Source of the DNA: Candidatus Saccharimonadota bacterium
GTDB lineage: Archaea > Nanobdellota > Nanobdellia > Pacearchaeales > GW2011-AR1
Assembly: GCA_041659445.1 (NCBI GenBank)
Contig: JBAZYG010000002.1
Coordinates: forward strand, 60,001-92,000
Direction of reading: 5' to 3'
DNA: 32,000 nt
Shown: positions 11,892-26,813 of the stretch, in pieces
How positions within the stretch are numbered: position 1 is the first letter of the stretch
Layout: each line of letters opens with the position of its first letter
Translations under genes and position numbers: made by a program
The notes under the pieces: generated by a model
What the model saw: the letters and a program-made list of their open reading frames with translations, nothing else
What the model was told of the DNA's origin: nothing
The model's database searches: none

Positions 11892-11892
11892 A

Positions 11893-12330
11893 ATGGAAGA
11901 ATTAGAAAAACTTAAACAAGAGAATTTTGAATTAAAAAAAGAAATAGAAAAATTAAAAAATTTATTAAATAATCGAGGGAAAACTCAAAAATCAGGAATG
12001 ATAAAAAAAGCAAGTTCAGGAAAAGTTATGTCAAAACCTGCTTTTGGATATAAAATAGAATTCGGAAAATTAATAAAAGATAGTGAAAACGCAAAAAAAG
12101 TTCAAGAAATATTCTCTGAATTTTTAATTAATGATATAAGTTTGAATAAATTATCTAAGAAATACAATTTTTCAGTTAATGGTTTGAAAAAAATTTTAAC
12201 TAATTTTACATACATTGGAAAAATAAAATTTGATAATTCAGTTCATGAAGGAACCCATGAGCCAATAATTTCATCAACAGATTTTAATCATGTTCAAGAT
12301 AAATTAGAAAAAATGCTTAAGAAGAATTGA
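11893..12330 (+). CDS. stand-alone 'Recombinase' domain protein (large-serine-recombinase DNA-binding domain without the catalytic resolvase domain)
   Basis: 145 aa with an N-terminal coiled coil. It then shows FGYK...AKKVQEIFSEF...SLNKLSKK...LKKILTNFTYIGK...HEPIISSTDFNHVQ, the conserved pattern of the Recombinase domain. The start is 1 nt after the xerA stop. Confidence 0.65.
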   Translation: MEELEKLKQENFELKKEIEKLKNLLNNRGKTQKSGMIKKASSGKVMSKPAFGYKIEFGKLIKDSENAKKVQEIFSEFLINDISLNKLSKKYNFSVNGLKKILTNFTYIGKIKFDNSVHEGTHEPIISSTDFNHVQDKLEKMLKKN

Positions 12331-12334
12331 TTAT

Positions 12335-12652
12335 TTACTCTCTTATTCTAAAGCCAAATCCACTTGTTTGATCTGTGCAGGGAACTCTTAACAAACTGAG
12401 GGATCTAGAATGATACTTCTTTTCAACTTTTTTAAAATCCTTTTCTGATATTAATTTATAGTTCTGTAGTTCTTTCAAGGAAATTCTTTTATGCTTTTTT
12501 TCTAAAATATTTTCCACAGAGATAATGTCTTCTGTAGTTTTTGCTTCCAGAGATATTTTTTGAAATTGTATAATTTCCCCTTCATAATAATTGTGTTGAA
12601 AATATTTTCCTTTAAGAGATTGTTCAAGTAATTCATACATTGTTTCTTCCAT
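12335..12652 (-). CDS. hypothetical protein (variable cassette ORF 1)
   Basis: 105 aa. Its 5' leader and 3' flank are duplicated around the neighbouring, unrelated ORF at 12847-13152. Confidence 0.5.
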   Translation of the reverse strand: MEETMYELLEQSLKGKYFQHNYYEGEIIQFQKISLEAKTTEDIISVENILEKKHKRISLKELQNYKLISEKDFKKVEKKYHSRSLSLLRVPCTDQTSGFGFRIRE

Positions 12653-12833
12653 AAAAAATTCATTAATTAATTCCTTTTAAAGATTATTGTTCTAAAAAAT
12701 AACCATTTCAGATTAAATGTTATATATACTGAAAAATAATAAACTTGAGTTGCCCATGATTGTGAAATATCTATCATTTCTCTAATCTTTTTTCCAGAAA
12801 TTAAAACCCCAAGCCAATTAATAATAAAGAAAA
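12644..12833. repeat. about 190-bp copy of 13144-13384 (leader plus 3' part of the membrane-protein gene), with a 50-bp internal deletion
   Basis: Aligned by eye: near-identical apart from a few substitutions and loss of 13218-13267. Positions 12717-12833 are a non-functional fragment of the 13203-13493 gene. Confidence 0.85.
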
Positions 12834-12846
12834 TGCTTAAGAAGAA

Positions 12847-13152
12847 TTAAAAGTCTTGAATAAAATTTAAGTCTGGAAATCTTTTAGATAAATTCTCATG
12901 GAAAATTTTTGATTCTTCTTGTGTTGGTAATCTCTCATCTTCGTCGGGTATTAAATCCTGACAAATTTTTATTTCCAAATTTTTATTCTCTTTTGAGAGT
13001 TTATTTAATTCAAAATCTAGGTGAAAATATTTTTCGTTTAAATTATTTGAAAGAAATCCACCACCGCCTGTTGTAGGAGGTTTAAAAAAATAATAAAAGT
13101 ATCTTTTTTCTGAAATTGACGCAAATAGCCTTAATTTATAATCTTCTTCCAT
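12847..13152 (-). CDS. hypothetical protein (variable cassette ORF 2)
   Basis: 101 aa with the same MEE start context and leader as 12335-12652, but an unrelated body. Confidence 0.5.
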   Translation of the reverse strand: MEEDYKLRLFASISEKRYFYYFFKPPTTGGGGFLSNNLNEKYFHLDFELNKLSKENKNLEIKICQDLIPDEDERLPTQEESKIFHENLSKRFPDLNFIQDF

Positions 13153-13202: not shown

Positions 13203-13493
13203 CTATTTTAGATTAAAGGCGTTGCTTTTCAAATCAGAAAATGGGAAAGGCCTATTGTTTGTTTTGAATGTTATATACACTGAAAAATAATAAACTTGAG
13301 TTGCCCATGATTGTGAAATATCTATCATTTCTCTAATCTTTTTTCCAGAAATTAAAACCCAAAGCCAATTAATAATAAAGAAAATTGCAACAAGATACAT
13401 CCAAACATAGAGAATTATTCCTGAAACAATTAAAACAACAATTCTCATTAATGCTTCTTTTCTTTCGAGTTCAACCTCTTTTTTTTCTTTCAT
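13203..13493 (-). CDS. small two-helix membrane protein
   Basis: I prefer the internal start MKEKKEVELERKEALMRIVVLIVSGIILYVWMYLVAIFFIINWLWVLISG, one nt after the rps9 stop. The track ORF (to 13592) would overlap rps9 out of frame. Confidence 0.55.
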   Translation of the reverse strand: MKEKKEVELERKEALMRIVVLIVSGIILYVWMYLVAIFFIINWLWVLISGKKIREMIDISQSWATQVYYFSVYITFKTNNRPFPFSDLKSNAFNLK

Positions 13494-13906: not shown

Positions 13907-14305
13907 TTAATTAAATTTAGAAAGTTTTTCAACTTCTATATATTTTGGTTTAATTTCTTTTTTCATTCCAAAGAATTTTTTACCTTCAAATTCTTTTGGA
14001 ATATTATCATAGCATCTTAATTTTTTCCAAGCAATTCTTCCTCTTCCTTCTCTATAATCTGGCAACATTCCTCTTATTGTTCTTTTAACAATTTTATAAT
14101 TTAATCTAGAGTGTTTTGGTCCTTTTTGGCTTGAACCAATTCTTGATCTTTTTTGTAAAAATTCTTCTTGAATATTTTTTTTATTTCCAGTAATAATTAT
14201 TTTGCTACAATTTAATATAATTATATCTTCTCCTTTTAGCAATTCTTTAGCTGTGAAACTTGCTAATCTTCCCATTGCAATATCTTTTCCGTCAATAATT
14301 TTCAT
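13907..14305 (-). CDS. rpl13: 50S ribosomal protein L13 (uL13)
   Basis: 132 aa; IIDGKDIAMGRLASFTAKELLKG...IRGMLP...GR pattern, in conserved position between L18e and S9. Confidence 0.9.
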   Translation of the reverse strand: MKIIDGKDIAMGRLASFTAKELLKGEDIIILNCSKIIITGNKKNIQEEFLQKRSRIGSSQKGPKHSRLNYKIVKRTIRGMLPDYREGRGRIAWKKLRCYDNIPKEFEGKKFFGMKKEIKPKYIEVEKLSKFN

Positions 14306-14673
14306 TTTAAAATTTTAACTCCTTTTGCATCTTTATTTTCTTTAATTTCATCTTTTAATAATTTTAATTCGCAATTAGCTTTTAACAACTTTTCCTTTGC
14401 TTTGTCTGAAAAATTTAAAGCACAAATTCGGATTTTTTTAGTTATTTCTCCGACAGATAAAACCTTTCCTGGAATTGCAATTATTTCACCTGGTTTTGAA
14501 TTTTTATCAATGTAATCTAAATTAATTTCAGATTTTTTTCTTGTTGGTCCAGAAAGAATAGAAGCAATTTCAATCCATTTTGAATTTTTTTTAGCTAAAA
14601 TTATTGTTTCAACTAATTCTGGATTTTTCTTTTTAGACAATTGTTTTTGAATTTGTGTTTTTGATTTTTGCAT
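14302..14673 (-). CDS. rpl18e: 50S ribosomal protein L18e (eL18)
   Basis: 123 aa; NPELVETI..LAKKNS.W..IA..LSGPTRKK..INL..I...PGE...IPGKVL..G pattern, with a 4-nt overlap onto L13. Confidence 0.85.
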   Translation of the reverse strand: MQKSKTQIQKQLSKKKNPELVETIILAKKNSKWIEIASILSGPTRKKSEINLDYIDKNSKPGEIIAIPGKVLSVGEITKKIRICALNFSDKAKEKLLKANCELKLLKDEIKENKDAKGVKILK

Positions 14674-14799: not shown

Positions 14800-14883
14800 T
14801 GTGGATGTTAGGATTCGAACCTAAGTAGGCACTAAGCCAACAGATTTTGAGTCTGTCCCGTTTGACCACTCCGGCACATCCAC
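14800..14883 (-). tRNA. tRNA-Leu (anticodon CAA), class II with long variable arm
   Basis: Minus strand GTGGATG-TG-CCGGAGTGGTCAAACGGG-ACAGA-CTCAAAA-TCTGT-TGGCTTAGTGCCTAC-TTAGG-TTCGAAT-CCTAA-CATCCAC-A. All stems pair and the 7-nt loop carries CAA. Confidence 0.92.
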
Positions 14884-15012: not shown

Positions 15013-15510
15013 ATGGAAAATAAAGGGTTTTTCAATAAAGAAATAGGGAATTTCACTTTTAAATCTCCAGAAATACCCAAAATAAGTGAAATACCTGAAA
15101 TTGCCCAAAATTCCATAAAAGACCCCCTTTTTTACGATTTAGGTAAAGAAAGAATAGAATCTCTTAAAAAAGCAATTTCAGAAATAAAAATTTTAATTAA
15201 AGAAAGAGAAAAGTTAAGTAAAGACACTTTTAACGAAGGTGAAAAACTTAAAACAGAAATAAATAATTTTATTCTTGAAAACGAAAATGCAAACATTGCA
15301 TTAAATTCTGTTTCTACAAATGAATTACTTAGAGAAAAAAACGAATTAAGGTCTAAAAAAATTACAATTTCTGAATCTCAATTAAAAGAAAAAATTGATT
15401 GCTGGAAAGACGTTGCAGTGCTTAAAAAAGAATTAAGAGAACTTGAAATAGAACTTTCAGAAAAAGAAAATAGGATAATTGCATTAAATAAAATTCTCGA
15501 ATCTAATTAA
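15013..15510 (+). CDS. coiled-coil protein, partner of the downstream ATPase
   Basis: 165 aa. The C-terminal two thirds are heptad-rich (ESLKKAISEIKILIKEREKL...LRELEIELSEKENRIIALNKILE). It ends 5 nt before the ATPase gene. Confidence 0.65.
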   Translation: MENKGFFNKEIGNFTFKSPEIPKISEIPEIAQNSIKDPLFYDLGKERIESLKKAISEIKILIKEREKLSKDTFNEGEKLKTEINNFILENENANIALNSVSTNELLREKNELRSKKITISESQLKEKIDCWKDVAVLKKELRELEIELSEKENRIIALNKILESN

Positions 15511-15515
15511 TAAAA

Positions 15516-17534
15516 ATGAAAAGACTTCTTAGTATAGAAGAGTTAAGCACAAAATTAAAACCTTTATTCGGAGAAAAAATTGATCAATTATATTTTAAAT
15601 ATTTAACTTCAAATTCTAACGAAGAAAAAATAGAAATTTTGCAATTATTGACGGCATTATATCAAAAAAATCTTTCAAATTTACTCGATACAAAAATTTT
15701 GTTAGAACCGCCTCCAAAAGAATTAGTTACAGGAGAATACACTCTTGGAAATGTAGTTTATAATGAAAAAGAACTATATCCCTTTAATTTAAGAGAGCAA
15801 GATTGGTCAAGACACATTTGTGTTACAGGTATGTCTGGTAGTGGAAAAACAAATTTAGCATTGAATATTCTTTCAGATTTTATAAAAAAATCAAAGCCAT
15901 TCTTAGTTTTTGATTGGAAAAAAAGTTTTCGACCGTTGGTAAATAAAGATCCTTCATTAATGATTTTTACAGTCGGAAACGAATCTGTAAATAATTTTTT
16001 CAAATTAAACATAAACCGACCACCAAAAGATGTTTCACCAAAAGAATGGATAAATGTTTTGTGTGATCTATTAACAGAAAGTTTTGCAGTTTCATTCGGA
16101 GTTCACAAAGTTTTATTAGAAACATTAGATGAAATTTTTGAAAAATGGGGAGTTTATTCTGGTTTTAATCATTATCCAAATTGGGAGCATGTTAAAAAAA
16201 TGCTTGAAATAAAAGCAAGAGAGGCAAAAAAAAGAGAATCTGCATGGTATGAAAGTGCTTTAAGAATTGCATCTGTTTTAACTTTTGGAAGTTTTGGAAA
16301 AGTTATAAACTACGACGGAAAAAAAAGTCTTTCAGTTGAAGATTTGTTTGATAAAAGAGTTATTCTTGAATTAAATTCTTTGGGAAATATTGAGAAAAAA
16401 TTCTTTTGTGAATATCTTTTAACTTATATTTACAAATTAAAAAAAGCAAATCAATTCAAAGATGAATTAAACTTTAATTATGCAATTTTAGTTGATGAAG
16501 CACACAATATTTTCTTGAAAAATAAAACAAATTTCTTATCTGAATCTGTTACAGACATGGTTTACAGAGAAATGAGGGAATATGGAATAAGTTTAATTTG
16601 TTTAGACCAGCACATTTCTAAAATAAGTGATACTGTTAAGGGAAATTCTGCTTGTCATATAGCATTTCAACAACAACTTCCTGAGGACATTTATGATATT
16701 AGTTCTTTAATGCAAATGTTTGACAGAAAAGAAATTTTTTCAAAAATTCCTGTTGGATATTCTATTGTGAAACTTGCTGAAAGATATAATTCCTCTTTTT
16801 TAATTAAAGTTCCGTTATTTGATTTTTCTGGTGCAGAAGTAGGTGATGAAAAAATAAAATCAAGAATGGATTTTAAATTACTTGAAAATGAAATTGAAGA
16901 ATCAGATAAAGAATTTAAAAAAGAAATAACTTTTCCTTCAATAAAAAATGCAATAAAACCCGGACTAACCTTGAAGAAATCAAAAAAAAGAATTATCTTA
17001 GATAAGGAAGATTTAGAAGTTCCTTTAGAAGTTCAAGATTTTAAGAGAAAAATTGAAAATATTAAAGAGGAATATGCTGGTTTAACTCCTGTTCAAAAAG
17101 AATTATTTTTATTTATTCAATCAAAATTAGATTCAGGACGTGAATTAAAAGATATTGAAAATTTGCTTGAGCAAGGGCTTTCAGAAAAACTTTATAGTTT
17201 TTCAGATGTATTAACTGCAATTAATTATGCAATGGAGCAAAGATTAAAACTTCCTTCAAAATCTTTAACTTTCCAAAATAAAAATAATTTAGAACTTGTT
17301 TCAAATCAATTAAAACATTCTTCTGAAAATTTACCTGACGATGAGAAAAAGTTTGTTGAATTTTTAAGAAAAAATCCAAACAATGAATTAAATACAACTT
17401 CAATATATTCTTCAATGGGTTTTTCAACAAGAAAAGGAAATGTTATTAAAAAAAGGTTAATTGAAAAAAATCTTATAAAAGTTCAAGAACAAAGGACAAC
17501 AAAAGGCTGGCAAAAATTCATAAGATTAGCTTAG
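15516..17534 (+). CDS. HerA/FtsK-superfamily P-loop ATPase (DUF87-like) fused to a C-terminal winged-helix domain
   Basis: 672 aa with Walker A ICVTGMSGSGKTNLALNIL, Walker B YAILVDEAHNIF, then LICLDQH. The C-terminus FVEFLRKNPNNELNTTSIYSSMGFSTRKGNVIKKRLIEKNLIKVQE is wHTH-like. Confidence 0.8.
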   Translation: MKRLLSIEELSTKLKPLFGEKIDQLYFKYLTSNSNEEKIEILQLLTALYQKNLSNLLDTKILLEPPPKELVTGEYTLGNVVYNEKELYPFNLREQDWSRHICVTGMSGSGKTNLALNILSDFIKKSKPFLVFDWKKSFRPLVNKDPSLMIFTVGNESVNNFFKLNINRPPKDVSPKEWINVLCDLLTESFAVSFGVHKVLLETLDEIFEKWGVYSGFNHYPNWEHVKKMLEIKAREAKKRESAWYESALRIASVLTFGSFGKVINYDGKKSLSVEDLFDKRVILELNSLGNIEKKFFCEYLLTYIYKLKKANQFKDELNFNYAILVDEAHNIFLKNKTNFLSESVTDMVYREMREYGISLICLDQHISKISDTVKGNSACHIAFQQQLPEDIYDISSLMQMFDRKEIFSKIPVGYSIVKLAERYNSSFLIKVPLFDFSGAEVGDEKIKSRMDFKLLENEIEESDKEFKKEITFPSIKNAIKPGLTLKKSKKRIILDKEDLEVPLEVQDFKRKIENIKEEYAGLTPVQKELFLFIQSKLDSGRELKDIENLLEQGLSEKLYSFSDVLTAINYAMEQRLKLPSKSLTFQNKNNLELVSNQLKHSSENLPDDEKKFVEFLRKNPNNELNTTSIYSSMGFSTRKGNVIKKRLIEKNLIKVQEQRTTKGWQKFIRLA

Positions 17535-17788
17535 CTTATTTTTGTTTATAGATTATGTTACTTTTATGCAATAGTTACAAATAGAAACATTTATAAATTG
17601 ATTATTCCCTATAAAATAGAAAAAATCATATTCAAAAAACTAAACAAAAAAAACATATTTCAAAAATTACAAAAGAAACAAAAAACCGAGAATAAAACAC
17701 AGAATAAATAAGATAAATAAAATTAAATTTTATCTTGCATTTATTCAAAAATTTTATTCAAAGTTAATAAATTTCTTAAGTAAAAAAA

Positions 17789-17995
17789 TGAAATACCTTT
17801 TTCAAAATCGTTTTAGGTTTTGAAAAACAAGTGAAAAACCGCAAAAGGCTTTTCATGAGAATTATTCTTCATAGAAATATCAACTAGAACTTAAGTGAAA
17901 TACCTCAATTTCTAAGATATTTCATCAAATAAATTTCAAAAAAAATTCAAAAAATAATATGAAATACCCTAATTCAATTAAAAAAAGGTATTTCA
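17789..17995. repeat. iteron-like TGAAAWACC repeats in a 500-bp noncoding region
   Basis: TGAAATACC at 17789-17797, 17896-17904 and 17960-17968. Inverted GGTATTTCA at 17987-17995. Variant GTGAAAAACC at 17831-17840. Confidence 0.8.
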
Positions 17996-18036
17996 CACAA
18001 AATAATTTTTAATATTAACAATTTAAAACTTTAATC

Positions 18037-18234
18037 ATGGAAACAGCAACTTTTTTTCTTTTAATCGGAGCGATAGTTTTCATTTTTTTAGGAGCAATTT
18101 TACTTGTCGCTTCTTCAAAAAAAGAAACCTACCATTTTCCCTGGCTGTCTGTAGCATGCCTAATCGTGGCTTTTGCATTTTGTTTAGCCGCCCTCATCGT
18201 GCAAAACTCGGCCGGCGTTCATCCAGCGAACTAA
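18037..18234 (+). CDS. small two-TM membrane protein
   Basis: 65 aa with two hydrophobic helices (FFLLIGAIVFIFLGAILLVA; SVACLIVAFAFCLAALIV). Confidence 0.6.
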   Translation: METATFFLLIGAIVFIFLGAILLVASSKKETYHFPWLSVACLIVAFAFCLAALIVQNSAGVHPAN

Positions 18235-18265
18235 CTTGCAGGAATTTTAACATCTTTTTAAAACA

Positions 18266-18421
18266 ATGGAACAAATAACTTTAATCATACTCGGAGCAGG
18301 ACTTTCCTGTTTAGGAGTATTAAATTTATTTGATTACAAACATAGAGTAAACAGATCTTCCATTCTTGGAATGGGATGGGGTTTAGCTATGTTTATTTTA
18401 GGGATTTGTATCCTTAAATAA
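18266..18421 (+). CDS. small two-TM membrane protein (51 aa)
   Basis: Hand-translated MEQITLIILGAGLSCLGVLNLFDYKHRVNRSSILGMGWGLAMFILGICILK. It has the same TTTAAAACA-ATGGAA start context as other island genes and is below the track cutoff. Confidence 0.45.
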   Translation: MEQITLIILGAGLSCLGVLNLFDYKHRVNRSSILGMGWGLAMFILGICILK

Positions 18422-18673
18422 TCAAATAGAAATCTGCTAATTTTGGATTAGCCGAGTTGATGCATATCTTGGGAACAGAAGCATCAAATTCTTTTTTATC
18501 TTTTCTTGCCTGCACTTCGTCGATGGATAAGAAGTTCGATTCTTCTTGCAGGCACAATTCAGTGTTAAAAAATTCAAAAACAATTTCGACAAAGCGGAAG
18601 GCGGTTTTGTCAAATTAATTAAAAACAAACCCTTAAAAAAAAGTGCCATAAGGAGGCGCTAGCCGAATGTATC

Positions 18674-19300
18674 ATGAAAAATTTAAATGGAAAAAGTTTT
18701 GATGAACCTGAGGAAGAAAGACTGGTAAATCCCAAAGTTTATCAGGCAAAACCCGAACGGGTTTTTACATATCCCGAAGGGACTTTTGGGAGGTTGTGTG
18801 AAGAACAACACTGCAATCCTGATATTCTAATCTCTTCAGAGACAAAAATATCTCTATTTTCAAAAGTAGGTAATCCGGGGTATCGAATGTATACCTACAA
18901 AATTGAAAACAATGAAACAGACGCGTTGAGCGTCTACGAACCATGGGCGAGAATTGAGCTCAAAAAAGATTTTTTCCTTGAAAGGAAAAATCATGCCAAG
19001 GAATGTGGCCGGATTGCAAAAGAGCTTGGACTTCCGTTTGAATTAATTCTGGCTGTCGGCATTGAGCCAGAAAAACGCCAGGCTCTTCTCCAGTTGAAAG
19101 AAAAAGCCGAATGGTTCAGGGAACTGATCCACGAGCTGAAGGAATGCGGAATTAATAAGAGGAAAATGTCTATTCTCGATCTCATCGGGAGAGAGACATA
19201 CGACTCTTTGGATGTCGAAGGTATGGGGCAAAAAAATTCCTCGACAATTGCCCAATTTCTCACAAGGGGAATAACCATCGAGGGTTATTCTAAAAAATAA
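18674..19300 (+). CDS. hypothetical soluble protein
   Basis: 208 aa with island-type composition and no signal peptide; no motif recognised. Confidence 0.65.
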   Translation: MKNLNGKSFDEPEEERLVNPKVYQAKPERVFTYPEGTFGRLCEEQHCNPDILISSETKISLFSKVGNPGYRMYTYKIENNETDALSVYEPWARIELKKDFFLERKNHAKECGRIAKELGLPFELILAVGIEPEKRQALLQLKEKAEWFRELIHELKECGINKRKMSILDLIGRETYDSLDVEGMGQKNSSTIAQFLTRGITIEGYSKK

Positions 19301-19387
19301 TAATTAACTCGGCAGAAATAAGGCACTGCAATGAGACAAAATATTAACTATTAATTGGATAGGGACATGCTATCCATTTTATTTTAA

Positions 19388-19459
19388 TTCATTATAGCTC
19401 AGTTGGTAGAGCATCTGATTTTATTCAGAAGGTCATAGGTTCGAATCCTATTAATGGAA
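19388..19459 (+). tRNA. tRNA-like gene with bacterial-type D-arm and an aberrant 6-nt anticodon loop (Lys-UUU-like, or pseudo-tRNA)
   Basis: TTCATTA-TA-GCTC-AGTTGGTA-GAGC-A-TCTGA-TTTTAT-TCAGA-AGGTC-ATAGG-TTCGAAT-CCTAT-TAATGGA-A. All four stems pair, but the total is 72 nt because the anticodon loop is one nt short. Confidence 0.6.
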
Positions 19460-19460
19460 C

Positions 19461-19910
19461 AATGTTCTCTTTTGAACATTTTAGCTTCATCCCTTGAAGC
19501 TTGCTCATACATGAGCATTTCGTTTCTCAATTTCTTTGAGAGACAAACATTTTTCTTTTTTTAATCTGATTATCATGTTTTTTTAATCAGGTTTCATTCG
19601 CTGAAATTTCCTTCAGCAAACATTTTCCAAAAACTCTTTAGATTTCAGAGCCAAAACAAAATCAATTTGTTATTTTATTTATTTTCAGTTATTATTTATT
19701 TTTAATTATTTTTCAAATTAATTACTTTATTAGTATTTAGTTAAGTTCTTTTTATTTCAATTATTTTCTTATCATTATTTTATTTTTCTTTTCGTCATTT
19801 CGTTCTGAAGTGACAAACATTTTTCTTAGTTTTCTTTTTAGTTGCTCTTTTTCATTAATTTATTTTGAGCAACTTTCTTCGGCTAATTCCAGCCAAACAT
19901 TTTCCCTTTT
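19461..19910 (+). repeat. array of short hairpins, four to five followed by a conserved AAACATTTT(T)C tail
   Basis: Stems TCTCAA/TTGAGA (tail at 19545), GCTGAA/TTCAGC (tail at 19618), GTCATTTC/GAAGTGAC (tail at 19814) and GGCT/AGCC (tail at 19895), plus AATGTTC/GAACATT at 19461-19480. More hairpins at 19483-19501, 19502-19517, 19566-19590 and 19842-19873. Confidence 0.8.
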
Positions 19911-19966
19911 AATTTTTCTTCTGAATTTTTTTTAAACAAATATTAACAATTTAATTTCAAAACGTC

Positions 19967-20806
19967 ATGAAAAATTTAATTTCAAAAAATTGTTCATCGA
20001 TTCTGCCGTTCTTTCTGATTGCATTAATTGCTATCTTTGCATTTTGCTGTGCAAGACCAGTGAATGCTCAATCCACGTGGGATTGTGAAAGGTATTCAGA
20101 TCCCTTTTCATTCAACGTCAAACAAGTCAATAGTTCAATTTGGATTTTGAGTTATTCGATTAAGAATGATTCAATTATGACATTCAACCATGCCGGCGTG
20201 ACCTCTTTGGAGTTGACTTCAAATGATATAATTCTTGATTCCATTGAGGTTGTCTTTGTGTCAAAATTTCCTTTTTCAAGTACACAAATTCAAGCCAGTC
20301 TTAAAAAAGTTTATTTTGAAAATTCCCCACAATTAGTGAGGCAAGATGTTATTTTCAAAACTTTTCCGAAGTGGCCAGACAAGAAAATAGAAACGTTTTA
20401 CATTTACTGCAAAAAAGAAGGAAATAAAGTAACTTTCTATGATGAATTGGTATTTACTAAAACCAAATCAAATTGGCTTTGGCCGACAGCGTGCGTTATA
20501 GTTTTAATTGGGTTTTTTTTAATTGATGCAATTCAAAAGATTGGGGAAAGAAGAAATTATCTCAAAAATGAAAGCAGGGTAGAAAAGTTTTTTTCAGGAT
20601 TTTTTGCAAATACTTTTTGCAGTTTTGGAGAAGTAATTTTCATCCTTATATTAATTATATTATTTCTTTTTAAGATAATGTCCCTAGTAGAAGATTATTC
20701 TTTAGATAAAATTGGAATAATCTTTTATCTGTCTCTGATTTTCTTGTTCTTTCTCGGAAAATTTATTCTTTACAAAATCTTTTTCCGAGGAATTAAAAAA
20801 TACTAA
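19967..20806 (+). CDS. secreted-domain protein with a C-terminal multi-TM region
   Basis: 279 aa with a signal peptide ending VNA|Q, a soluble domain of about 140 aa, then 3-4 hydrophobic helices. Confidence 0.7.
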   Translation: MKNLISKNCSSILPFFLIALIAIFAFCCARPVNAQSTWDCERYSDPFSFNVKQVNSSIWILSYSIKNDSIMTFNHAGVTSLELTSNDIILDSIEVVFVSKFPFSSTQIQASLKKVYFENSPQLVRQDVIFKTFPKWPDKKIETFYIYCKKEGNKVTFYDELVFTKTKSNWLWPTACVIVLIGFFLIDAIQKIGERRNYLKNESRVEKFFSGFFANTFCSFGEVIFILILIILFLFKIMSLVEDYSLDKIGIIFYLSLIFLFFLGKFILYKIFFRGIKKY

Positions 20807-20813
20807 CTTCTTT

Positions 20814-20890
20814 TAAGGGCAAGTTAAAGAAAAGGATTTTCTACGTTTTGCCTTTTTAGATTAGAGATAGCAATCTAATACTTGCCCTTA
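20814..20890 (+). ncRNA. 77-nt Y-shaped structured element (11-bp closing stem plus two internal hairpins), function unknown; may act as a terminator
   Basis: TAAGGGCAAGT (20814-20824) pairs with ACTTGCCCTTA (20880-20890). Inner hairpins are AAAAGG..CCTTTT and TAGATT..AATCTA. It is followed by TTTTC. Confidence 0.4.
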
Positions 20891-20942
20891 TTTTCAAAAC
20901 TTTTTTTCAAAATTAATTCACCAATTCAAAATTTTAAACGCC

Positions 20943-21632
20943 ATGAAAAATTTAATTTCTTTACTTAAAAAAGTAGGAGTCTTTAAAGCAATCGGAATTT
21001 CTGCTTTAATTGGCTTTATTTTGGTAATAATTTTTCTTGTGCTATTACCAAAAAATTCAAATTCACAAGAAATTTCTTCTCCTGAAAAATGGAAGATTAA
21101 TTCCATAAATTTTGTCGCTGGCGAAACACCCTTGACAAAAGGAATTACTTTAAGCCCAGTTTTTTCAAAAGGTAAATCAACAATAATGATAGATCTAAAC
21201 CAGGAATTAGGAGAACTTATGTTTTTTTATTCTCCTAAAAAATGGTGTTCCATCGGGCCATCAGTAGGGTTCTTCAAGAATACATCTTGGGTAGGACCAA
21301 TTGCTTCATTAAACATTTTTAATGGACATGTTACAACTCTTAACTGGGTGGGATGGAGTTTTGGAAACCCTGAAGCAATCGGAGGAGGAACTACAAATTC
21401 CAACGTTGATTTCTTGTTTTCCTTTCACCAGGTTTCTGTCAATTACTTCGGTGTAGAAGGTTATTATATTCTGCAACACTACCAAAAAAATTTTCCCGGG
21501 CACATTGTAGGGGTTAAGTATACTTTTGCCCTCGGAGATAATTTTTCCCTTTTCGGAGGTTATGCTTATATGTTCCGAGCAGATAAATCCCTTTGGTCCG
21601 CAGGTTTCATTTTGTTATTTCCAGAAAAATAA
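20943..21632 (+). CDS. secreted beta-rich protein, putative beta-barrel (paralog of 21636-22316)
   Basis: 229 aa with a signal/anchor ending SNS|Q and alternating hydrophobic strands. It shares the YSPKKWxSIGPSVG block with the next gene (YSPKEWITFGLSAG). Confidence 0.65.
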   Translation: MKNLISLLKKVGVFKAIGISALIGFILVIIFLVLLPKNSNSQEISSPEKWKINSINFVAGETPLTKGITLSPVFSKGKSTIMIDLNQELGELMFFYSPKKWCSIGPSVGFFKNTSWVGPIASLNIFNGHVTTLNWVGWSFGNPEAIGGGTTNSNVDFLFSFHQVSVNYFGVEGYYILQHYQKNFPGHIVGVKYTFALGDNFSLFGGYAYMFRADKSLWSAGFILLFPEK

Positions 21633-21635
21633 ACC

Positions 21636-22316
21636 ATGAAAGCAAATTTCAAATTAAAAGTTCCCGGTCCATTCACAATTGTAGAATGGATTTTCATCAT
21701 GATGATTGTATTGGCAATCGGAACTTGTTCCAGAACCAATGCTCAAACTTCTCAAAATTTCTTCAAGATAAATGTTCATGTTCAAGTTGTTTCAGACGAG
21801 CAATCTGAAACAAGTAAAAAGTTCAGAACATTTTACCAAGAGGAATTTTATTTTAATCATAAATTTTCTTCGAATTTAGCTTTCACAAGTTTTGCAACAG
21901 TTAGAAATGATCGGGGTGAAATTTATTCTGGATTAGAGTACTCACCAAAAGAATGGATAACTTTTGGTTTGAGTGCTGGTCTAGATGTTGCAAAAGAAGC
22001 TGGTTCATCGTCAGCAACTTTGAGAACTGCAACATCTGTTTCCCTCAAGCCAGTAGAACAATTTGAATTCAAAGGAATTTTTGAATATAGCTCTGAGGAT
22101 TACTGGTTTTTGATTGAGCCAAAATACAATGGAAAGAAATTTTCATTGAGTTTGATTGCCCGTCGATATCATGGTGTCGGGTTTTCATTTTATTGGCCGA
22201 TTGCCAAGGGTAATCTGACTTTATGGTACTATGCGGGATATCTTCAAGGAAAATTCCTCGGAGGTGATGATAACCCACGAGCCTCTTCAGCCTTAGGGTT
22301 GAAAGTTAATTTTTAA
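21636..22316 (+). CDS. outer-membrane-type beta-barrel-like protein
   Basis: 226 aa with a signal peptide ending TNA|Q and amphipathic beta-strand periodicity. The C-terminus is ALGLKVNF, with terminal Phe and alternating hydrophobics (bacterial OMP beta-signal). Confidence 0.65.
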   Translation: MKANFKLKVPGPFTIVEWIFIMMIVLAIGTCSRTNAQTSQNFFKINVHVQVVSDEQSETSKKFRTFYQEEFYFNHKFSSNLAFTSFATVRNDRGEIYSGLEYSPKEWITFGLSAGLDVAKEAGSSSATLRTATSVSLKPVEQFEFKGIFEYSSEDYWFLIEPKYNGKKFSLSLIARRYHGVGFSFYWPIAKGNLTLWYYAGYLQGKFLGGDDNPRASSALGLKVNF

Positions 22317-22347
22317 TTTACTTAATACTAATTTAATTTTTAAAACA

Positions 22348-22842
22348 ATGGAAAATTTTCTTGAAAACAAATCAGTTGCAAAAATCTGCTTGATTCTTGC
22401 AATTATCATCATGGTGATTCTGTCTCTCTCGCCAATAGATGCAAAGTCTCAAGTGATTGTTAATGACGCTGATTCAAGTGTTGTCCTTGACATTCAGAGC
22501 ACCTCTGGCGGTATTCTCATTTCCCGGATGACAGAAGCTCAACGTGACAGCATCTCAGAACCAGCGAATGGTTTGCTGATTTATCAAACAACCGTTCCAA
22601 TGGGTTTTTATTTTTGGGACGGAGTCCAGTGGAACAGGCTCGTAAGTGAAAATGCAGAAGGTATCATACAATATGGTGAGGCAGAATTTTCTGGAGAGCC
22701 TTCCCAGGAATTATTTGAAAGTGTTTTTGGTATCAGACAATTTCATTTTCATTTCACTCTGCTAAGCACAAATCAGAATAAAGTCTTCACTGGCGCCTAC
22801 ATTACTGGGCATGGGTTTTTCTATGAAAAACTCAAGCAATAA
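22348..22842 (+). CDS. secreted protein with an STSGGILISRMT..QRD.I..P..GLLIYQT....W motif
   Basis: 164 aa with a signal peptide ending AKS|Q. From memory, the motif resembles one common in Bacteroidota secreted hypothetical proteins; this was not verified. Confidence 0.6.
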   Translation: MENFLENKSVAKICLILAIIIMVILSLSPIDAKSQVIVNDADSSVVLDIQSTSGGILISRMTEAQRDSISEPANGLLIYQTTVPMGFYFWDGVQWNRLVSENAEGIIQYGEAEFSGEPSQELFESVFGIRQFHFHFTLLSTNQNKVFTGAYITGHGFFYEKLKQ

Positions 22843-22946
22843 CAACTACAACCCTTAATTGGGATTCTGCATTTCTAAATTTCTTTGGCATTATTAAAGA
22901 AATTAAATTCTCAAAATGTTTATTAATCATCAAATTTCAAAATGTC

Positions 22947-23093
22947 ATGGCAAAAAAGAATTTTGCAACCAGAATCATCTTAGAAAATGATGGAGTTTCT
23001 AAAGATGAAGAAATTCCTCTCAAAGCCAAAATGAAAAATATACATAAAACCTACCATCCACTAAAAGGGATGAAAGGAAAAAAAGCAGAATAA
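22947..23093 (+). CDS. small basic protein (48 aa)
   Basis: Hand-translated MAKKNFATRIILENDGVSKDEEIPLKAKMKNIHKTYHPLKGMKGKKAE. It is preceded by the island leader AAATTTCAAAATGTC-ATG and followed by a 10-bp-stem hairpin. Confidence 0.45.
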   Translation: MAKKNFATRIILENDGVSKDEEIPLKAKMKNIHKTYHPLKGMKGKKAE

Positions 23094-23236
23094 AACCCAT
23101 CAGCAACGCAAAAGGCAGGAACTTTTAATCTAAATTAACTAATGGTTTTTGATGAATCTCTATCTTCCCCTGCCTTTTTAATTTGAAAACAATTTATGTC
23201 AAAATATTAATTCAAAACTTTTAATTTCAAAACGTC

Positions 23237-23746
23237 ATGAAAACAAAAGAGAACAATTTTCTGTATTGGGGAGTTGTGATTGTTTTTTTAGTAACGATCA
23301 TATCCCTGGTCTTAATGTTTGTTTCTATAATTTCAAAAGCAAATAAAAAAGATTTAGAAACAAAATCTTCCAACACTTCAAACGTTGTTTTTGTGGAGAA
23401 TTCTGATTCTTCAATAATAATAAACGCAGAAGTTATCATCTCAGAATTCAACGGAATTTCTGATTCCGTTGATTACCAAACCAGCGAGGATTTTATAGAT
23501 ATTTCCTTAGCAATAGAACAATATTATCCTTGCTCAGATACTACTCTCTGTGACAGCCTGAGACAAAATTTTATTGACGAGCTTAGAAAAATTTCAGATG
23601 TTAATGTCCTTGAAATTTTTCTCGAGACAATCAATAGGGTTTTCATCAACACAGACTTTTCAAAAACCGATGACATTAAATCATTAATTACTCAGAGAGT
23701 TAATGATTTATACGCCCTTGAATCATATCAAGAACTCAAAAAATAA
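23237..23746 (+). CDS. N-terminally anchored extracytoplasmic protein
   Basis: 169 aa with one TM (LYWGVVIVFLVTIISLVLMFVSII), and the leader TTAATTTCAAAACGTC-ATG, nearly identical to that of 19967. Confidence 0.65.
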   Translation: MKTKENNFLYWGVVIVFLVTIISLVLMFVSIISKANKKDLETKSSNTSNVVFVENSDSSIIINAEVIISEFNGISDSVDYQTSEDFIDISLAIEQYYPCSDTTLCDSLRQNFIDELRKISDVNVLEIFLETINRVFINTDFSKTDDIKSLITQRVNDLYALESYQELKK

Positions 23747-23785
23747 TTTTCAAAACTTTTTTCAAAACAATTTAAATTAAATGTC

Positions 23786-24178
23786 ATGGAAAAATTTGGT
23801 ATTTATTTAGTATGGATGCTGATACTTCTTGTATTTGCGTTCTTAAATCGCACCATCCTGTATTATGGAGCAATCTGTCCAGCCGTCAGTGGAAGACCTG
23901 TTGCTGACTTAAGACCTTGGAGAATATTCTCTTGGGTTTTCGGAGGAATTTCCTTTATTGTTTACAATTTTCTTTTGTTAGTTCCAATCGACAGCGAGTT
24001 TAAAGATTTCTTCAAACCAGTGTGCCTGATTTTTGCTGGAACCTGTGTTCTGGCATTAATTCTTTTTGCCCTGCTAAGTTCTGATGCAATTTTGATGACT
24101 ATCCGTCGGAGATTTAATCTCGTTGGAATTGCGTTAGGAATTGTCTTGTGCCTAACGCTTTCATTCTTCCTGTTATAA
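23786..24178 (+). CDS. four-TM integral membrane protein
   Basis: 130 aa with four hydrophobic segments. Confidence 0.65.
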   Translation: MEKFGIYLVWMLILLVFAFLNRTILYYGAICPAVSGRPVADLRPWRIFSWVFGGISFIVYNFLLLVPIDSEFKDFFKPVCLIFAGTCVLALILFALLSSDAILMTIRRRFNLVGIALGIVLCLTLSFFLL

Positions 24179-24184
24179 CATTCA

Positions 24185-24224
24185 TTGCATTATGTATCTC
24201 TTGAAGATTATAATGCATTTCTTT
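24185..24224 (+). terminator. hairpin plus T-run (intrinsic-terminator-like)
   Basis: TGCATTAT (24185-24192) pairs with ATAATGCA (24209-24216), followed by TTTCTTTG. Confidence 0.55.
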
Positions 24225-24300
24225 GATTTCAATTACTCAATTTAATTTGAGACAAAATATTTTTCACAAATTTCTATTTATTAATTCAAAAATTTTTACC

Positions 24301-25152
24301 ATGAAAAAAATCGTTTTTTTATTCGGAATTTTCTTCCTTTTTTTAGGAAGTATCTTTTCCCAAGACATCATCTATAAAAGAGATGGGTCCAGAATTCAAT
24401 CAGTGGTTTTGAAAATCACTGAGACGTCGATAGAATATCAATATTTCAATCAACCCGACGGGCCTGTGCGAGTACTCTCTCTAAAAGATGTGTATATGGT
24501 CAGGTACAACGACGGAACAGAAGAACAATTCACATCTGAAGTTCCTGAAGTTCAACCTGAACCTGAGGCTGTTTCCACCACATCTATTATGCCGACGACA
24601 ACAATCAGTCAACCTGTTTCAACAGAACCAATTCAGCCACCAGTTACAACCAAACAAAAATCATCTGGAAAATTCTCCCTCAATGCTGGAGGGTTTCTCC
24701 ATATGTATTACAACGAGGAAATGTCCTCGACATTTGGCACCATGCCTTTGTTCGGCTTGGGTCTTGGCGTGGACATGGATAATATATTTTTCACGCTGAG
24801 ATATAATACTGGCTCTGTGAAGTATGATGAGGATAACTGGACATTAAAGCATTCCCAGTTGGACTTGCTGTTCGATTTAAAGTGGTATAAATCACAGGGA
24901 AGCAAAGCCCAAGTATATTCTGGAATTGGGCTTTCTCTTAATACATTGAAAGATGAAGGTCCAGACAACGAGAAAGAAAAAGGAACAGGTGCAGGGGTTT
25001 TGCTCGAGCTTGGCTTTGATATCTTACTTGCAAATAATTTATATTTGTTTGTCACGGCAACATCTGTGATAGGGAATGTAAATATTTACGAAGAGAAAGT
25101 TAACATCAGCGGAGAACGACTCGGAGTCGGGCTCAAGGTTAACTTTGATTAA
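24301..25152 (+). CDS. outer-membrane-type beta-barrel protein with an N-terminal small domain and a Pro/Thr-rich linker
   Basis: Start taken at MKKIVFLFGIFFLFLGSIFS|QD. It has an N-domain IIYKRDGSRIQSVVLKITETSIEYQYFNQPDGPVRVLSLKDVYMVRYNDGTEEQF, a PEPEAVSTTSIMPTTT linker, about 8 amphipathic strands, and ends GVGLKVNFD. Confidence 0.7.
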   Translation: MKKIVFLFGIFFLFLGSIFSQDIIYKRDGSRIQSVVLKITETSIEYQYFNQPDGPVRVLSLKDVYMVRYNDGTEEQFTSEVPEVQPEPEAVSTTSIMPTTTISQPVSTEPIQPPVTTKQKSSGKFSLNAGGFLHMYYNEEMSSTFGTMPLFGLGLGVDMDNIFFTLRYNTGSVKYDEDNWTLKHSQLDLLFDLKWYKSQGSKAQVYSGIGLSLNTLKDEGPDNEKEKGTGAGVLLELGFDILLANNLYLFVTATSVIGNVNIYEEKVNISGERLGVGLKVNFD

Positions 25153-25269
25153 CTTTTAAATTTTCAAAAAATCCTTAATCGAAATTCTAAAATTAGTTTG
25201 AAGAAAAGAGCATAACTGTGAGTGTATGCTTTTAAATTTTCAAAATGTCTAATAACAAATTTTTTAACA

Positions 25270-26055
25270 ATGGAAACAAAAACAAAAAAAATCACATGGT
25301 GGGACGTAGCATTTGTCGCCATCGTGGTGACTTTGGTGGGGTTTGTACTTTGGGTTTGTCTCACACCGCCGCCCAACAAAATAACCGACGAGAGAGCCCA
25401 ACAAACCCAAGATTCACTCTCAAACCAGTATCGATTTGAGTGTAACTTAATTTCTTTCAACTCAGAACCAGTTCCGGCCTTTTTTGAATGGTTGGAATTG
25501 CAAGGAGAGGGATACACTCCAGTAGGTAATAATCCGGTTCTGGTACCCATACGTTCAGGACAGGAAATGATTTATTCGTATGAAGGTAAAATGTATAAAG
25601 GCATTTTACCAAACACAACCTACTTCATGTGGGAGCCAGCTTCAGGTATGGAATTCAAATGTCTCTCCAGAAATGGAGCAATTATATCCATAACTCCTTA
25701 TGAAACAGGTGAGCCAGTCCAGTATTTTATCCGTCGATACAATGAATTCTGGAGTTTCGAGGAATTAAAAATTCGTAATTATCGTTATTCATTGAACATC
25801 ACCGCAATTTATCCTTGGGGAGAAATTCTCATCGATAACTACGAAGATCTGTTGATGAATTCTTCTGTAAAAAGGTTTCGCTCCTGGGGACCTGCTTATG
25901 AAGTTCAGGTCGGGCAAGCTGAGTTAAATGGGTGGGAAGATTTTTTCCTCGTCAGTCAGGATGGGAAAGCATGGCTTACCCGCGAACAAGAGCAACGACG
26001 ACGTGAAAGTCAGTTCATACATAACGTCGGACCTGGAGGTTTTATACTTCCATAA
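25270..26055 (+). CDS. N-terminally anchored extracytoplasmic protein
   Basis: Start taken at METKTKKITWWDVAFVAIVVTLVGFVLWVCL (single TM); the remaining roughly 230 aa are soluble with no recognised motif. Confidence 0.65.
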   Translation: METKTKKITWWDVAFVAIVVTLVGFVLWVCLTPPPNKITDERAQQTQDSLSNQYRFECNLISFNSEPVPAFFEWLELQGEGYTPVGNNPVLVPIRSGQEMIYSYEGKMYKGILPNTTYFMWEPASGMEFKCLSRNGAIISITPYETGEPVQYFIRRYNEFWSFEELKIRNYRYSLNITAIYPWGEILIDNYEDLLMNSSVKRFRSWGPAYEVQVGQAELNGWEDFFLVSQDGKAWLTREQEQRRRESQFIHNVGPGGFILP

Positions 26056-26246
26056 TTCCCCCAATTATTAAACCCAAAATGTGAAGTTGACAAGAATGTG
26101 ACTTGATGTGCACATTTTTTCTTTTGAACAAATTATTAATTTAAAAAAGAAAGGAGGAAAAAATAATTAAGAGTGTTGGTATGAACATAACCTTATTTTT
26201 AAGGTGTATGTAAAATTATAATTATTCACCTAAATTTTAAATCATC

Positions 26247-26813
26247 ATGAAAAAGATTCTTTTTATTTTCTTTGGACTACTCTTTGCGAGTAGTCTTTTT
26301 GCAATCGAACCGACAGTACCTGCTACCAGCACCGGCGAGAATTCCCCGACGATTTTCACTGCTGAGCAGAAAGCTGAAGCCATCAACGCTTTCGTGACCA
26401 GTGGAAGCATGGAAATGGCTATTCCCGGATTGCCTGATGCACCGCCGCCGGTGAGGTATGAGAACATCTTAGGTTTTGAAGTAACCGCATGTAACTCCAT
26501 GCACATTGCGTATGGGGTGACCGGGGGTAATGAAGAACCTGCTTTTTGGGTTTACCCATGGGGAGGAACCGTTAGAGTAGAAAAAACAGTTTGGCCCCAA
26601 GCAGGACAGCAAGTTTGGGTAAAAGTATTATCCTGTTCAAGCCCACAGCAAGGATATTGCAATCTACATTTAGACCGAAGGGTTTGGTATCCAGATCAAG
26701 GTCCTATGGGCGAGCCCTTATTGTGCTTGTATGGATGGATATGGTGTTATACCGCGGGAAGTATCCTACCTCAAACAGGATACACCGAGGCCGGTTATTG
26801 TGTGACTGAATAG
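26247..26813 (+). CDS. secreted Cys/Trp-rich protein
   Basis: 188 aa with signal peptide MKKILFIFFGLLFASSLFA|IE. It is the G+C-richest gene in the window and its C-terminal half contains 7 Cys. Confidence 0.65.
   Translation: MKKILFIFFGLLFASSLFAIEPTVPATSTGENSPTIFTAEQKAEAINAFVTSGSMEMAIPGLPDAPPPVRYENILGFEVTACNSMHIAYGVTGGNEEPAFWVYPWGGTVRVEKTVWPQAGQQVWVKVLSCSSPQQGYCNLHLDRRVWYPDQGPMGEPLLCLYGWIWCYTAGSILPQTGYTEAGYCVTE

Follow-up and report, generated by a model that had tools for sequence, protein, structure and literature searches.

A hairpin array with conserved loops and tails and freely varying stems downstream of a tRNA-like gene in a DPANN archaeon

Several described systems combine short hairpins or short direct repeats with conserved flanking sequence, among them intrinsic and oligo-T terminators, integron attC sites, iteron-type replication origins, and the promoter-early stem-loop (PeSL) cassettes, which are elements of T4-type phages (PMC2839356, PMC4122927). 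Here, we describe an array of hairpins that occupies a noncoding spacer of 506 nt, positions 19461 to 19966 of a 32,000-nucleotide stretch of a Pacearchaeales genome (the window), downstream of a tRNA-like gene. The array is a clean case of two paralogous copies in which loops and flanks are frozen and stems are free, a pattern that argues for a specific reader of hairpin RNA or single-stranded DNA (ssDNA) in a member of the DPANN archaea, about whose cis-regulation almost nothing is known. It sits at the entry of a strain-specific cluster of bacterial-type genes for secreted or outer-membrane-like proteins.

With intrinsic and oligo-T terminators the array shares sense-strand hairpins followed by T-runs, a place 3' of a tRNA-type gene and between co-oriented units, a free stem sequence, and a T-rich tail; two of its repeated units and two neighbouring hairpins pass a terminator scan. 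It differs from them in an invariant CAAACA between stem and T-run, in a conserved TTCG and conserved loops, in the double occurrence of a three-hairpin module, in its weak AU-rich stems, and in its excess of hairpins. PeSL cassettes likewise join a small stem-loop to a conserved regulatory sequence within a hyperplastic region of otherwise conserved gene order, and a second module of the locus studied here (a hairpin followed by TTTTTAATTTGAAAACAAT) sits between unrelated genes in two genomes. However, the array has no genes between its units, its tail departs from the promoter-like consensus, no exchange breakpoints were seen at it, and its host is an archaeon rather than a phage. Similar to integron attC sites, the units are sequence-variable, imperfect hairpins whose short flanks are conserved, as is one position that is unpaired or mismatched, and any function they have would be that of a folded single strand. 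An earlier reading of the same DNA, made from its letters alone (the original prediction), had accordingly listed attC-like recombination sites among its explanations. This did not hold up: the units measure 20 to 30 nt compared with 57 to 141 nt for attC, four of them lie within 390 nt, no cassettes separate the sites, the R''/R' core consensus (RYYYAAC/GTTRRRY) is missing, and no IntI integrase gene is adjacent. Iteron origins resemble the array in that direct short repeats flank a very AT-rich core beside a gene for a small helix-turn-helix (HTH)-like protein, here one of 208 amino acids (aa) with relatives on mobile elements. In contrast to the regular, helically phased iterons of about 17 to 22 bp, the array's repeats are 12 bp long and irregularly spaced, its covarying stems have no role in duplex binding, and neither a recognisable initiator nor a sign of autonomous replication was found. 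As a lead only, we mention the tRNA-linked hairpin RNAs of murid herpesvirus 68, whose tRNA-like/precursor microRNA units agree with the locus in layout: a non-decoding tRNA-like gene is followed on the same strand by short hairpins and T-runs, in another domain of life and with other machinery.

Two copies of a three-hairpin block

Ten local hairpins were counted in the spacer, in agreement with the at least nine short hairpins originally predicted here. Four of them form units (U1 to U4) with a common consensus: TTCG, a variable stem of 3 to 8 bp, a CU-rich loop of 5 to 6 nt, the complementary stem arm, and a conserved 12-mer tail, CAAACATTTTYC. The G of the 5' flank TTCG pairs with the C of CAAAC. 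The original prediction was right about the order of stem, T-rich loop, stem and tail in these four units and wrong about the flank, which it gave as TTTC; the stems it quoted (TCTCAA/TTGAGA, GCTGAA/TTCAGC, GTCATTTC/GAAGTGAC with one G.T pair, and GGCT/AGCC) are all correct. The sequence AAACATTTT starts at 19545, 19618, 19815, and 19895, always on the + strand; across the whole window, counting both strands, it has 11 matches, where 5.25 are expected.

The units, all on the + strand, are of two types. Type A (U1 and U3) has a loop of the form xTTCT and a tail ending in TTTTTC, and type B (U2 and U4) a loop of the form AxTTCC and a tail ending in TTTTCC. U1 (19519-19555, with its hairpin at 19519-19547; -11.0 kcal/mol) reads TTCG, TTTCTCAA, loop TTTCT, TTGAGAGA and tail CAAACATTTTTC, followed by TTTTTTT. 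Its type A counterpart U3 (19791-19825, hairpin 19791-19817; -9.3 kcal/mol) reads TTCG, TCATTTC, loop GTTCT, GAAGTGA (one G.T pair) and the same tail. The type B units are U2 (19597-19628, hairpin 19597-19620), with TTCG, CTGAA, loop ATTTCC, TTCAG and tail CAAACATTTTCC, and U4 (19878-19905, hairpin 19878-19897), with TTCG, GCT, loop AATTCC, AGC and again CAAACATTTTCC. Behind each A unit come a T-rich spacer, a hairpin with a long loop (M1 or M2, both on the + strand), three bases, and then a B unit. M1 (19563-19593) pairs AATCTGATTA with TAATCAGGTT, including one G.T, around an 11-nt U-rich loop, and M2 (19840-19874; -9.6 kcal/mol) pairs AGTTGCTC with GAGCAACT around a U-rich loop of 19 nt. 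Because the order A, M, B is present twice, the array consists of two direct copies of a three-hairpin block. The blocks, each about 110 nt long (19519-19628 and 19791-19905), flank an AT-rich core.

Comparing one block with the other separates frozen from free positions. In unpaired segments of equal length, 42 of 46 positions are identical (91%), compared with 9 of 36 in the stem arms (25%), where all three helices are still paired in both copies. The duplication is thus accompanied by compensatory stem changes, and the prediction of a conserved structure with conserved flanks and free stem sequence is borne out. Such a pattern implies that the array works in single-stranded nucleic acid. 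A C.A opposition at the stem base (TTCG/CAAA) is kept in all four units; the two outer T-A pairs of this base may simply be unpaired. The three non-Watson-Crick positions in the variable stems (in U1, U3, and M1) are T.G; they form G.U wobbles when the + strand folds and A.C mismatches when the - strand does. M1 folds at -7.8 kcal/mol on the + strand versus -5.1 kcal/mol on the - strand, and 7 of the 10 hairpins are more stable on the + strand. The C.A opposition recurs in an extra TTCG/CAAA unit on the same strand at 18585-18614, 60 nt upstream of the 208-aa gene; this unit reads TTCG, ACAAAGC, loop, GTTTTGT, CAAA and then TTAATTAAAAAC (-10.2 kcal/mol on the + strand versus -6.8 kcal/mol on the - strand). 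It is a possible fifth member of the family, with a different tail.

The remainder of the spacer is made up of three leading hairpins, the core, and a leader. Hairpins H1 (19461-19480, AATGTTC/GAACATT; -5.8 kcal/mol), H2 (19483-19501, AGCTTCA/TGAAGCT; -8.0 kcal/mol), and H3 (19502-19517, TGCTCA/TGAGCA; -6.1 kcal/mol) stand back-to-back on the + strand over 19461-19517, with H1 directly 3' of the tRNA-like gene. H1 had been recognized in the original prediction as a fifth hairpin with the tail embedded in its stem, and indeed its 3' arm plus TT gives GAACATTTT, which resembles the tail. The core between the blocks (19629-19790) has a GC content of 14%, is T-rich on the + strand and includes a weak hairpin, H7 (19634-19652); its most extreme part, 19660-19790, had been singled out before and has 10.7% GC. 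No open reading frame (ORF) was found in the core, and its T-tracts show no helical phasing. Downstream of U4, a T-rich leader with the probable promoter region of the downstream operon (19906-19966, + strand) ends in TTAATTTCAAAACGTC before the ATG, and TTAATTTCAAAACGTC-ATG is also found upstream of the gene at 23237. The array as a whole (19461-19966) has no credible ORF. Tiny ORFs that start at the reverse-strand ATG of each tail were considered and rejected, as they encode mutually unrelated peptides of 5 to 19 aa.

The possibility that shuffled sequence of the same composition would give similar structures was not borne out by either shuffled or Markov controls. Folded as RNA, the spacer has a minimum free energy (MFE) of -90.2 kcal/mol, compared with -52.2 +/- 4 kcal/mol in dinucleotide shuffles (z = -9.5); the z-score of its minus strand is -7.0. 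In a sliding scan of the 32 kb with 120-nt segments, 19501-19620 is the most structured stretch (z about -10). A descriptor of the unit (TTCG, a stem of at least 3 pairs, a loop of 3 to 8 nt, the second arm, and CAAA) finds six sites in the window, all of them on the + strand, where first-order Markov copies of the window lead one to expect 0.53 per strand; within the 506-nt segment, it finds four, with 0.0076 expected. A chance origin of the four tail-bearing units is statistically excluded. Counts of 6-bp hairpins are not discriminating in AT-rich DNA (perfect stems of at least 6 bp occur at about 14 per kb across the window), whereas energy z-scores do discriminate.

We then built a covariance model (R1) from U1 to U4, which scores these units at 37.1, 44.8, 38.6, and 36.7 bits, respectively. 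Its next best match in the rest of the window reaches 20 bits and lies inside a coding region, and nothing significant was found in five related Pacearchaeota loci (L043, L046, L047, L050, and L051), in about 18 kb of additional flanks from the same genome (bringing the own-genome DNA searched to about 50 kb), or in other DNA. When the array was compared with Rfam, both at the gathering threshold and at E values up to 10, only tRNA matches were returned, and a BLAST search of 19380-19970 against phage and plasmid records matched the tRNA part only. The small-RNA family considered in the original prediction thus gained no further member from the covariance model or from Rfam, and the idea that the motif might recur at variable-region boundaries of relatives found no counterpart: the tail CAAACATTTTYC is absent from the five related loci and from the other gene junctions of the window and the genome flanks. 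A descriptor site with a CATTT tail was not found in 2.08 Mb of other DNA. Pattern scans of three public collections for two tails 50 to 80 nt apart, whose returned matches did not include the window's own locus, gave 3 matches in viral_contigs (all coding, and attributable to chance), 35 in genome_contigs (the 12 inspected are tandem repeats or chance), and at least 120 stretches in metagenome_contigs, with no variable hairpins abutting tails among the matches listed. Independent assemblies of the locus are identical across the array, which leaves no population variation to use. The scans also gave unrelated operator-like repeats. On an unrelated metagenome contig (L135, 7860-7975), six copies of CCACAAACATTTTT in both orientations lie within 115 bp; they have an operator- or origin-like look and a 9-mer in common with the array tails, and do not show the hairpin-plus-tail layout.

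Candidate functions of the array

The array, which has no known relatives, most likely represents a variation on terminator or attenuator hairpins. More specifically, and with less than even confidence, we read it as a tandem set of such RNA hairpins that insulates the downstream secreted-protein operon. It would act in cis, as RNA of the + (sense) strand. Each A or B unit would present a short G-C-closed hairpin, CAAACA, and a run of four to five U, within a spacer full of T5 to T8 tracts; given this form, transcripts arriving from the 208-aa gene or the tRNA-like gene would hit successive hairpin-plus-U-tract stop signals. Archaeal RNA polymerase would also encounter many oligo-T signals, so that the region would function as a multi-terminator or insulator, and the hairpins would in addition protect the 3' ends of upstream transcripts. 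Alternatively, a factor reading the conserved loops and the CAAACAUUUUYC tail would make the array a gated attenuator of the downstream operon. Tandem terminators had been ranked as a less likely explanation in the original prediction; they are now placed first, given the sense-strand orientation, the T-runs, and the position in a T-rich spacer between co-oriented units. The prediction's option of repeated regulatory hairpins stands and comes near to this reading.

Several observations point in this direction. As is typical for intrinsic terminators, the array has transcription units 5' of it on its own (+) strand, namely the 208-aa gene and the tRNA-like gene. A consensus terminator scan flagged U1, U3, H3, and a hairpin before the tRNA; at its threshold of 3 G-C pairs, U1 and U3 pass and U2 and U4 fall below. 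Terminator-like sites number 5 in 2.5 kb, with 1.5 expected. Four to five T follow every unit (T5 in the tails of U1 and U3, only T4 in those of U2 and U4), U1 is followed by T5 C T7, and the + strand of 19501-20000 carries at least 12 runs of T5 or longer, so that the archaeal oligo-T feature (a run of 5 or more T in the non-template strand 3' of a gene) is present. The same 500 nt have an AT skew of -0.27 and a GC skew of -0.29, that is, a pyrimidine-rich sense strand. Host genes in the window end in plain T-tracts, and further genes of the cluster and of a related genome end in a hairpin with a conserved T-rich tail behind it.

However, a number of points weigh against simple termination. 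The G-C-closed stem leaves 5 to 6 nt (AAACA) before the U-run, a spacer that would weaken a classical bacterial intrinsic terminator; it shrinks to 2 nt (CA) if TTCG and CAAA are paired, which requires the conserved C.A mismatch. Plain termination accounts for neither the invariant 12-mer and TTCG nor the CU-rich loops, and these features call for a sequence-specific reader. Ten hairpins over about 500 nt far exceed the requirements of a terminator, stem stability is low (-5.2 to -11.0 kcal/mol for 4 to 9 pairs, 1 to 4 of them G-C), and U2 and U4 fold better on the - strand. Termination in archaea requires no hairpins. Lastly, in L046, the one related locus with an equivalent tRNA-like gene, that gene is followed by the next one within about 50 nt and there is no array, which shows that the array is not a required part of the locus. 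A promoter on the opposite strand was considered separately: a Bacteroidota promoter (GAAAAATGTTTG, compared with TAnnTTTG) was rejected, as its first T is mismatched and it points away from all genes.

The invariant bases left unexplained by termination could be accounted for if the A-M-B blocks were a structured RNA bound by a factor, either a small RNA or a leader for processive antitermination or attenuation, or if the hairpins were cut from a precursor led by the tRNA-like gene. In the former case, the hairpins would be scaffolds, the loops and the CAAACAUUUUYC tail would be read, and the adjacent 208-aa HTH-like protein is a possible reader; in the latter, RNase P or tRNase Z would release the hairpins. 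The contrast between unpaired segments and stems is the pattern of a structured RNA that is read sequence specifically, the two copies keep a fixed internal order, an HTH-like motif is encoded directly upstream, and the non-decoding tRNA-like gene directly 5' of the hairpins offers a possible processing handle. The order of regulator gene, tRNA gene, terminators, and late or structural operon also recalls lambdoid late-control regions. We nevertheless consider such an RNA unlikely, if well worth keeping in view as the main rival: Rfam holds no match, comparative support comes from the internal duplication only, as no other copy turned up in the searches made, no promoter is evident between the blocks, and the 208-aa protein belongs to a family without known function, with an AlphaFold model (made without an alignment) that is unusable at a predicted local distance difference test (pLDDT) score of 36. 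Less likely again is that the units are PeSL-like junction modules, each a terminator hairpin joined to a promoter start, which serve as homology patches for gene swapping and of which the array would represent "empty" junctions after gene loss. The interval from L18e/tRNA-Leu to RpoD is indeed hypervariable in related Pacearchaeota, with conserved flanks and a conserved ATPase gene, and another hairpin-plus-tail module is exactly common to the window and L043, beside different genes. In addition, two promoter-like BRE/TATA sites of this genome begin with AAACATTT: one, GAAAACATTTTTAAAG, precedes the gene at 8651, and the other, AGAAACATTTATAAAT at 17585, is conserved in L043 and L046. Yet the A-rich 3' half of the TATA box (TTTWTAAA) of this genome's promoter-like sites is missing from the tails, none of which has a gene or start codon at promoter distance, CAAACATTTTYC marks no other junction in the DNA compared, and recombination between direct repeats should collapse arrays rather than build them.

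Two further explanations place the function in DNA. It is improbable, in our estimate, that the region is the replication origin of a captured foreign element, with the CAAACATTTTYC boxes as iterons, the 160-bp AT-rich core as the site of unwinding, hairpins on the single strand (e.g., primosome or single-strand initiation sites), and the 208-aa protein as initiator. The core of 14% GC is flanked two-plus-two by direct 12-mers, the adjacent HTH-like gene has relatives in bacterial conjugative or plasmid-like contigs, the region from 18 to 27 kb has 33 to 43% GC compared with about 25% for the host, and strand-specific hairpins are typical of single-strand origins. Against this, the boxes are only 12 bp long with starts 73, 197, and 80 bp apart, that is, irregular and without a 10- to 11-bp periodicity, and double-strand binding sites need no adjacent covarying stems. 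Moreover, the cluster has no recognisable Rep, HUH, primase, or partition gene, there is no sign that the cluster is or was an autonomous replicon, and the chromosomal origin most likely lies beside cdc6/orc1, at about 5.5 to 6.3 kb. Structure-specific recombination sites (attC-like or of the HUH/Y1-transposase type), cut in the tail of folded ssDNA, are a very improbable explanation. Variable stems with conserved flanks and a conserved C.A mismatch are of the kind read by structure-specific recombinases, the array lies at the edge of a hypervariable cluster, and a tyrosine recombinase gene and an ORF with a "Recombinase" domain are present at 11058-12330. However, the four units enclose no ORFs, the flanks are TTCG and CAAACATTTTYC (on the reverse strand, GRAAAATGTTTG, in which GTTTGnn departs from GTTRRRY), transposases of the HUH or Y1 type were not found, and other cassette borders in the cluster have different hairpins. 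The tyrosine recombinase gene (11058-11891) is 7.5 kb away, across the S9-L13-L18e operon, and the recombinase pair is probably the chromosomal Xer enzyme, since it is conserved in relatives that have no array. Finally, AT-rich DNA forms many short hairpins, and the absence of the array from relatives shows that it is dispensable for the locus; still, a chance product of low-complexity DNA or a functionless neutral remnant is scarcely credible. The number of tail-bearing units and the MFE z-score argue against this reading, and stems that diverge with their pairing kept while unpaired bases stay the same are the reverse of the decay expected after neutral duplication. Other classes were rejected outright: dispersed palindromes such as repetitive extragenic palindromes (REP) or miniature inverted-repeat transposable elements (MITE), because all stems differ and no further copy was found in the window, the approximately 18 kb of flanks or the related loci, and H/ACA, C/D, CRISPR, bulge-helix-bulge (BHB), and DNA-uptake-sequence readings, for which hairpin size, boxes, or genome-wide frequency do not fit.

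It is tempting to speculate, as a long shot, that the A-M-B blocks are a new cis element of the hypervariable, bacterial-like Pacearchaeota cluster: either a protein-read RNA switch that would gate imported surface-protein genes or, with the tRNA-like gene at their head, hairpin RNAs or ssDNA sites that would take part in the capture or exchange of foreign genes beside the conserved FtsK/HerA-type (Ced-like) DNA-translocating ATPase. If the array gates the cluster or helps to assemble it, it would open a way to study how these symbiotic archaea take up foreign surface genes and express them; as a mere stack of terminators, it would be ordinary.

The tRNA-like gene and the hypervariable locus

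The tRNA-like gene (19388-19460, + strand) has an AT-rich acceptor stem and an anticodon loop of only 6 nt (TTTTAT). ARAGORN reports it as "tRNA-???" with a 2-base anticodon, and it matches the Rfam tRNA model at 64.6 bits. Its D-loop reads AGTTGGTA and its T-loop TTCGAAT. It matches only bacterial, phage, and plasmid tRNAs, at 75 to 87% identity, and exact searches for it in viral contigs found nothing. Judged by eye against E. coli tRNA-Lys, we take it to be closest to tRNA-Lys(UUU), with an anticodon loop one base short; it probably decodes no codons and is pseudogene-like. L046 also has an odd tRNA of bacterial type in its variable part (3886-3957), with the anticodon CAA and without the long variable arm of tRNA-Leu, and both genes are probably non-decoding.

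The locus around the array is a more surprising feature than the array itself. The window, with about 25% GC, carries the archaeal genes S13-S4-S11-RpoD, L18e-L13-S9, L21e, Rpb4, Cdc6/Orc1, and PolD. The S13-S4-S11-RpoD-L18e-L13-S9 operon is usually contiguous in archaea. Here, it is split between RpoD (27347-28060, - strand) and L18e (14302-14673, - strand) by about 12.6 kb of opposite transcription. After tRNA-Leu(caa) (14800-14883, - strand) and a coiled-coil ORF comes a 672-aa DUF87/Zot ATPase of the FtsK/HerA type (15516-17534, + strand), with a weak NCBIfam match to the Ced DNA-import ATPase CedD. It is followed by about 500 nt of noncoding DNA, two small membrane ORFs, the 208-aa ORF (18674-19300, + strand), the tRNA-like gene, the array, and nine ORFan genes with signal peptides or membrane helices (19967-26813, + strand), including OMP_b-brl and PTL_trimer members. 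All genes from 15013 to 26813, the tRNA-like gene included, share the + strand with the four tails.

The ATPase has more than 800 homologues at 55 to 70% identity in DPANN archaea, many on long contigs. In five relatives, where it measures 650 to 700 aa, it occupies the same position, preceded by L18e/tRNA-Leu and the coiled-coil ORF and followed by a block of + strand ORFans reaching to RpoD. The gene content of this block (5 to 9 kb) is different in every genome compared. With a conserved ATPase and flanks around variable content, the region is a conserved hypervariable locus rather than a prophage. The Zot match and the one-strand gene order had also raised the possibility of an inovirus-like provirus with an Ff-type hairpin-rich intergenic region; this was rejected because the ATPase, widespread in DPANN archaea at the same chromosomal position, is a host gene. 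An integrated element bounded at 14852 and 26954, the ends of a 12.1-kb Logan contig (L002), was likewise rejected, as direct repeats were not found there. The 5' break of that contig falls inside the conserved tRNA-Leu gene in several samples and species; we take it for a break in the assembly graph rather than an attachment site.

The 208-aa protein has no close relative and 57 remote ones of about 180 to 200 aa, with the motifs CGIxRRK and MGQxNSxRxA. The family has no Pfam or PDB match and no Rep, primase, or HUH signature. One relative is encoded in a bacterial conjugative element that also carries VirB4-like, TrbL, coupling-protein, SSB, and resolvase genes, and another in a 48% GC contig of co-oriented ORFan genes, which we read as phage- or plasmid-like. 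Given these relatives in bacterial mobile elements and the bacterial or phage type of the tRNA, the 208-aa gene, the tRNA-like gene, and the array look, from their sequences, like imported bacterial mobile-element DNA, and the protein is a candidate trans-acting partner of the array.

The variable genes (19967-26813 in the window, 11871-13931 in L047, and 5837-6619 in L051) encode OMP_b-brl (with a C-terminal ...KVNF), TonB_C, Fib_succ_major/PKD, and PTL_trimer proteins, features of the bacterial diderm type within an archaeal genome. Five of the six signal peptides in the window end just before Q. Signal peptides that end before Q follow the Bacteroidota "Q-rule". The diderm-type genes, together with their GC content of 33 to 43%, suggest repeated gene import from bacteria, possibly the symbionts' hosts. 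TT(T)CAAAAC motifs stand just 5' of cluster start codons (19955-19966, 23225-23236, 20893-20942, and 23747-23785), and the genes so preceded lack the GGAGG ribosome-binding sites found before variable genes in L043 and L046.

Two other repeated elements were noted in the locus. Repeats of GAAATACC occur 10 times in the window, with 0.95 expected, and cluster in the A-rich noncoding stretch just 3' of the ATPase gene in the window (17790-17994) and in every relative (L047, 9427-9572; L050, 6705-6843; L051, 3063-3226; L043, 3335-3400). Five of the L047 copies follow one another at intervals of exactly 31 nt. Also conserved is a promoter-like GAAACATTTATAAA immediately 3' of the ATPase stop codon, and the GAAATACC set is probably a conserved regulatory array or a noncoding RNA. 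The second element is the terminator hairpin AAGGnCAGG...CCTGnCC followed by TTTTTAATTTGAAAACAAT, found at 23113-23193 in the window and at 5880-5961 and 9040-9122 in L043, whose ATPase is 70% identical. A 17-mer of its tail, TTTAATTTGAAAACAAT (23177 in the window), is identical in L043 beside unrelated genes, and this hairpin with its tail is a PeSL-like junction module of the hypervariable locus.

Outside the locus, Cdc6/Orc1 (4250-5458, - strand) and the PolD small subunit (2651-4237, - strand) are encoded side by side, with the PolD large subunit just beyond. Cdc6/Orc1 adjoins an intergenic region of 19% GC (5459-5936), at which the GC skew shifts, and the chromosomal replication origin probably lies here. 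Between the recombinase genes and S9, a 122-bp direct repeat (12713-12834 and 13264-13385; 97.5% identical) goes with two similar 101-aa ORFs (in the region of 12335-12652 or 12847-13152).

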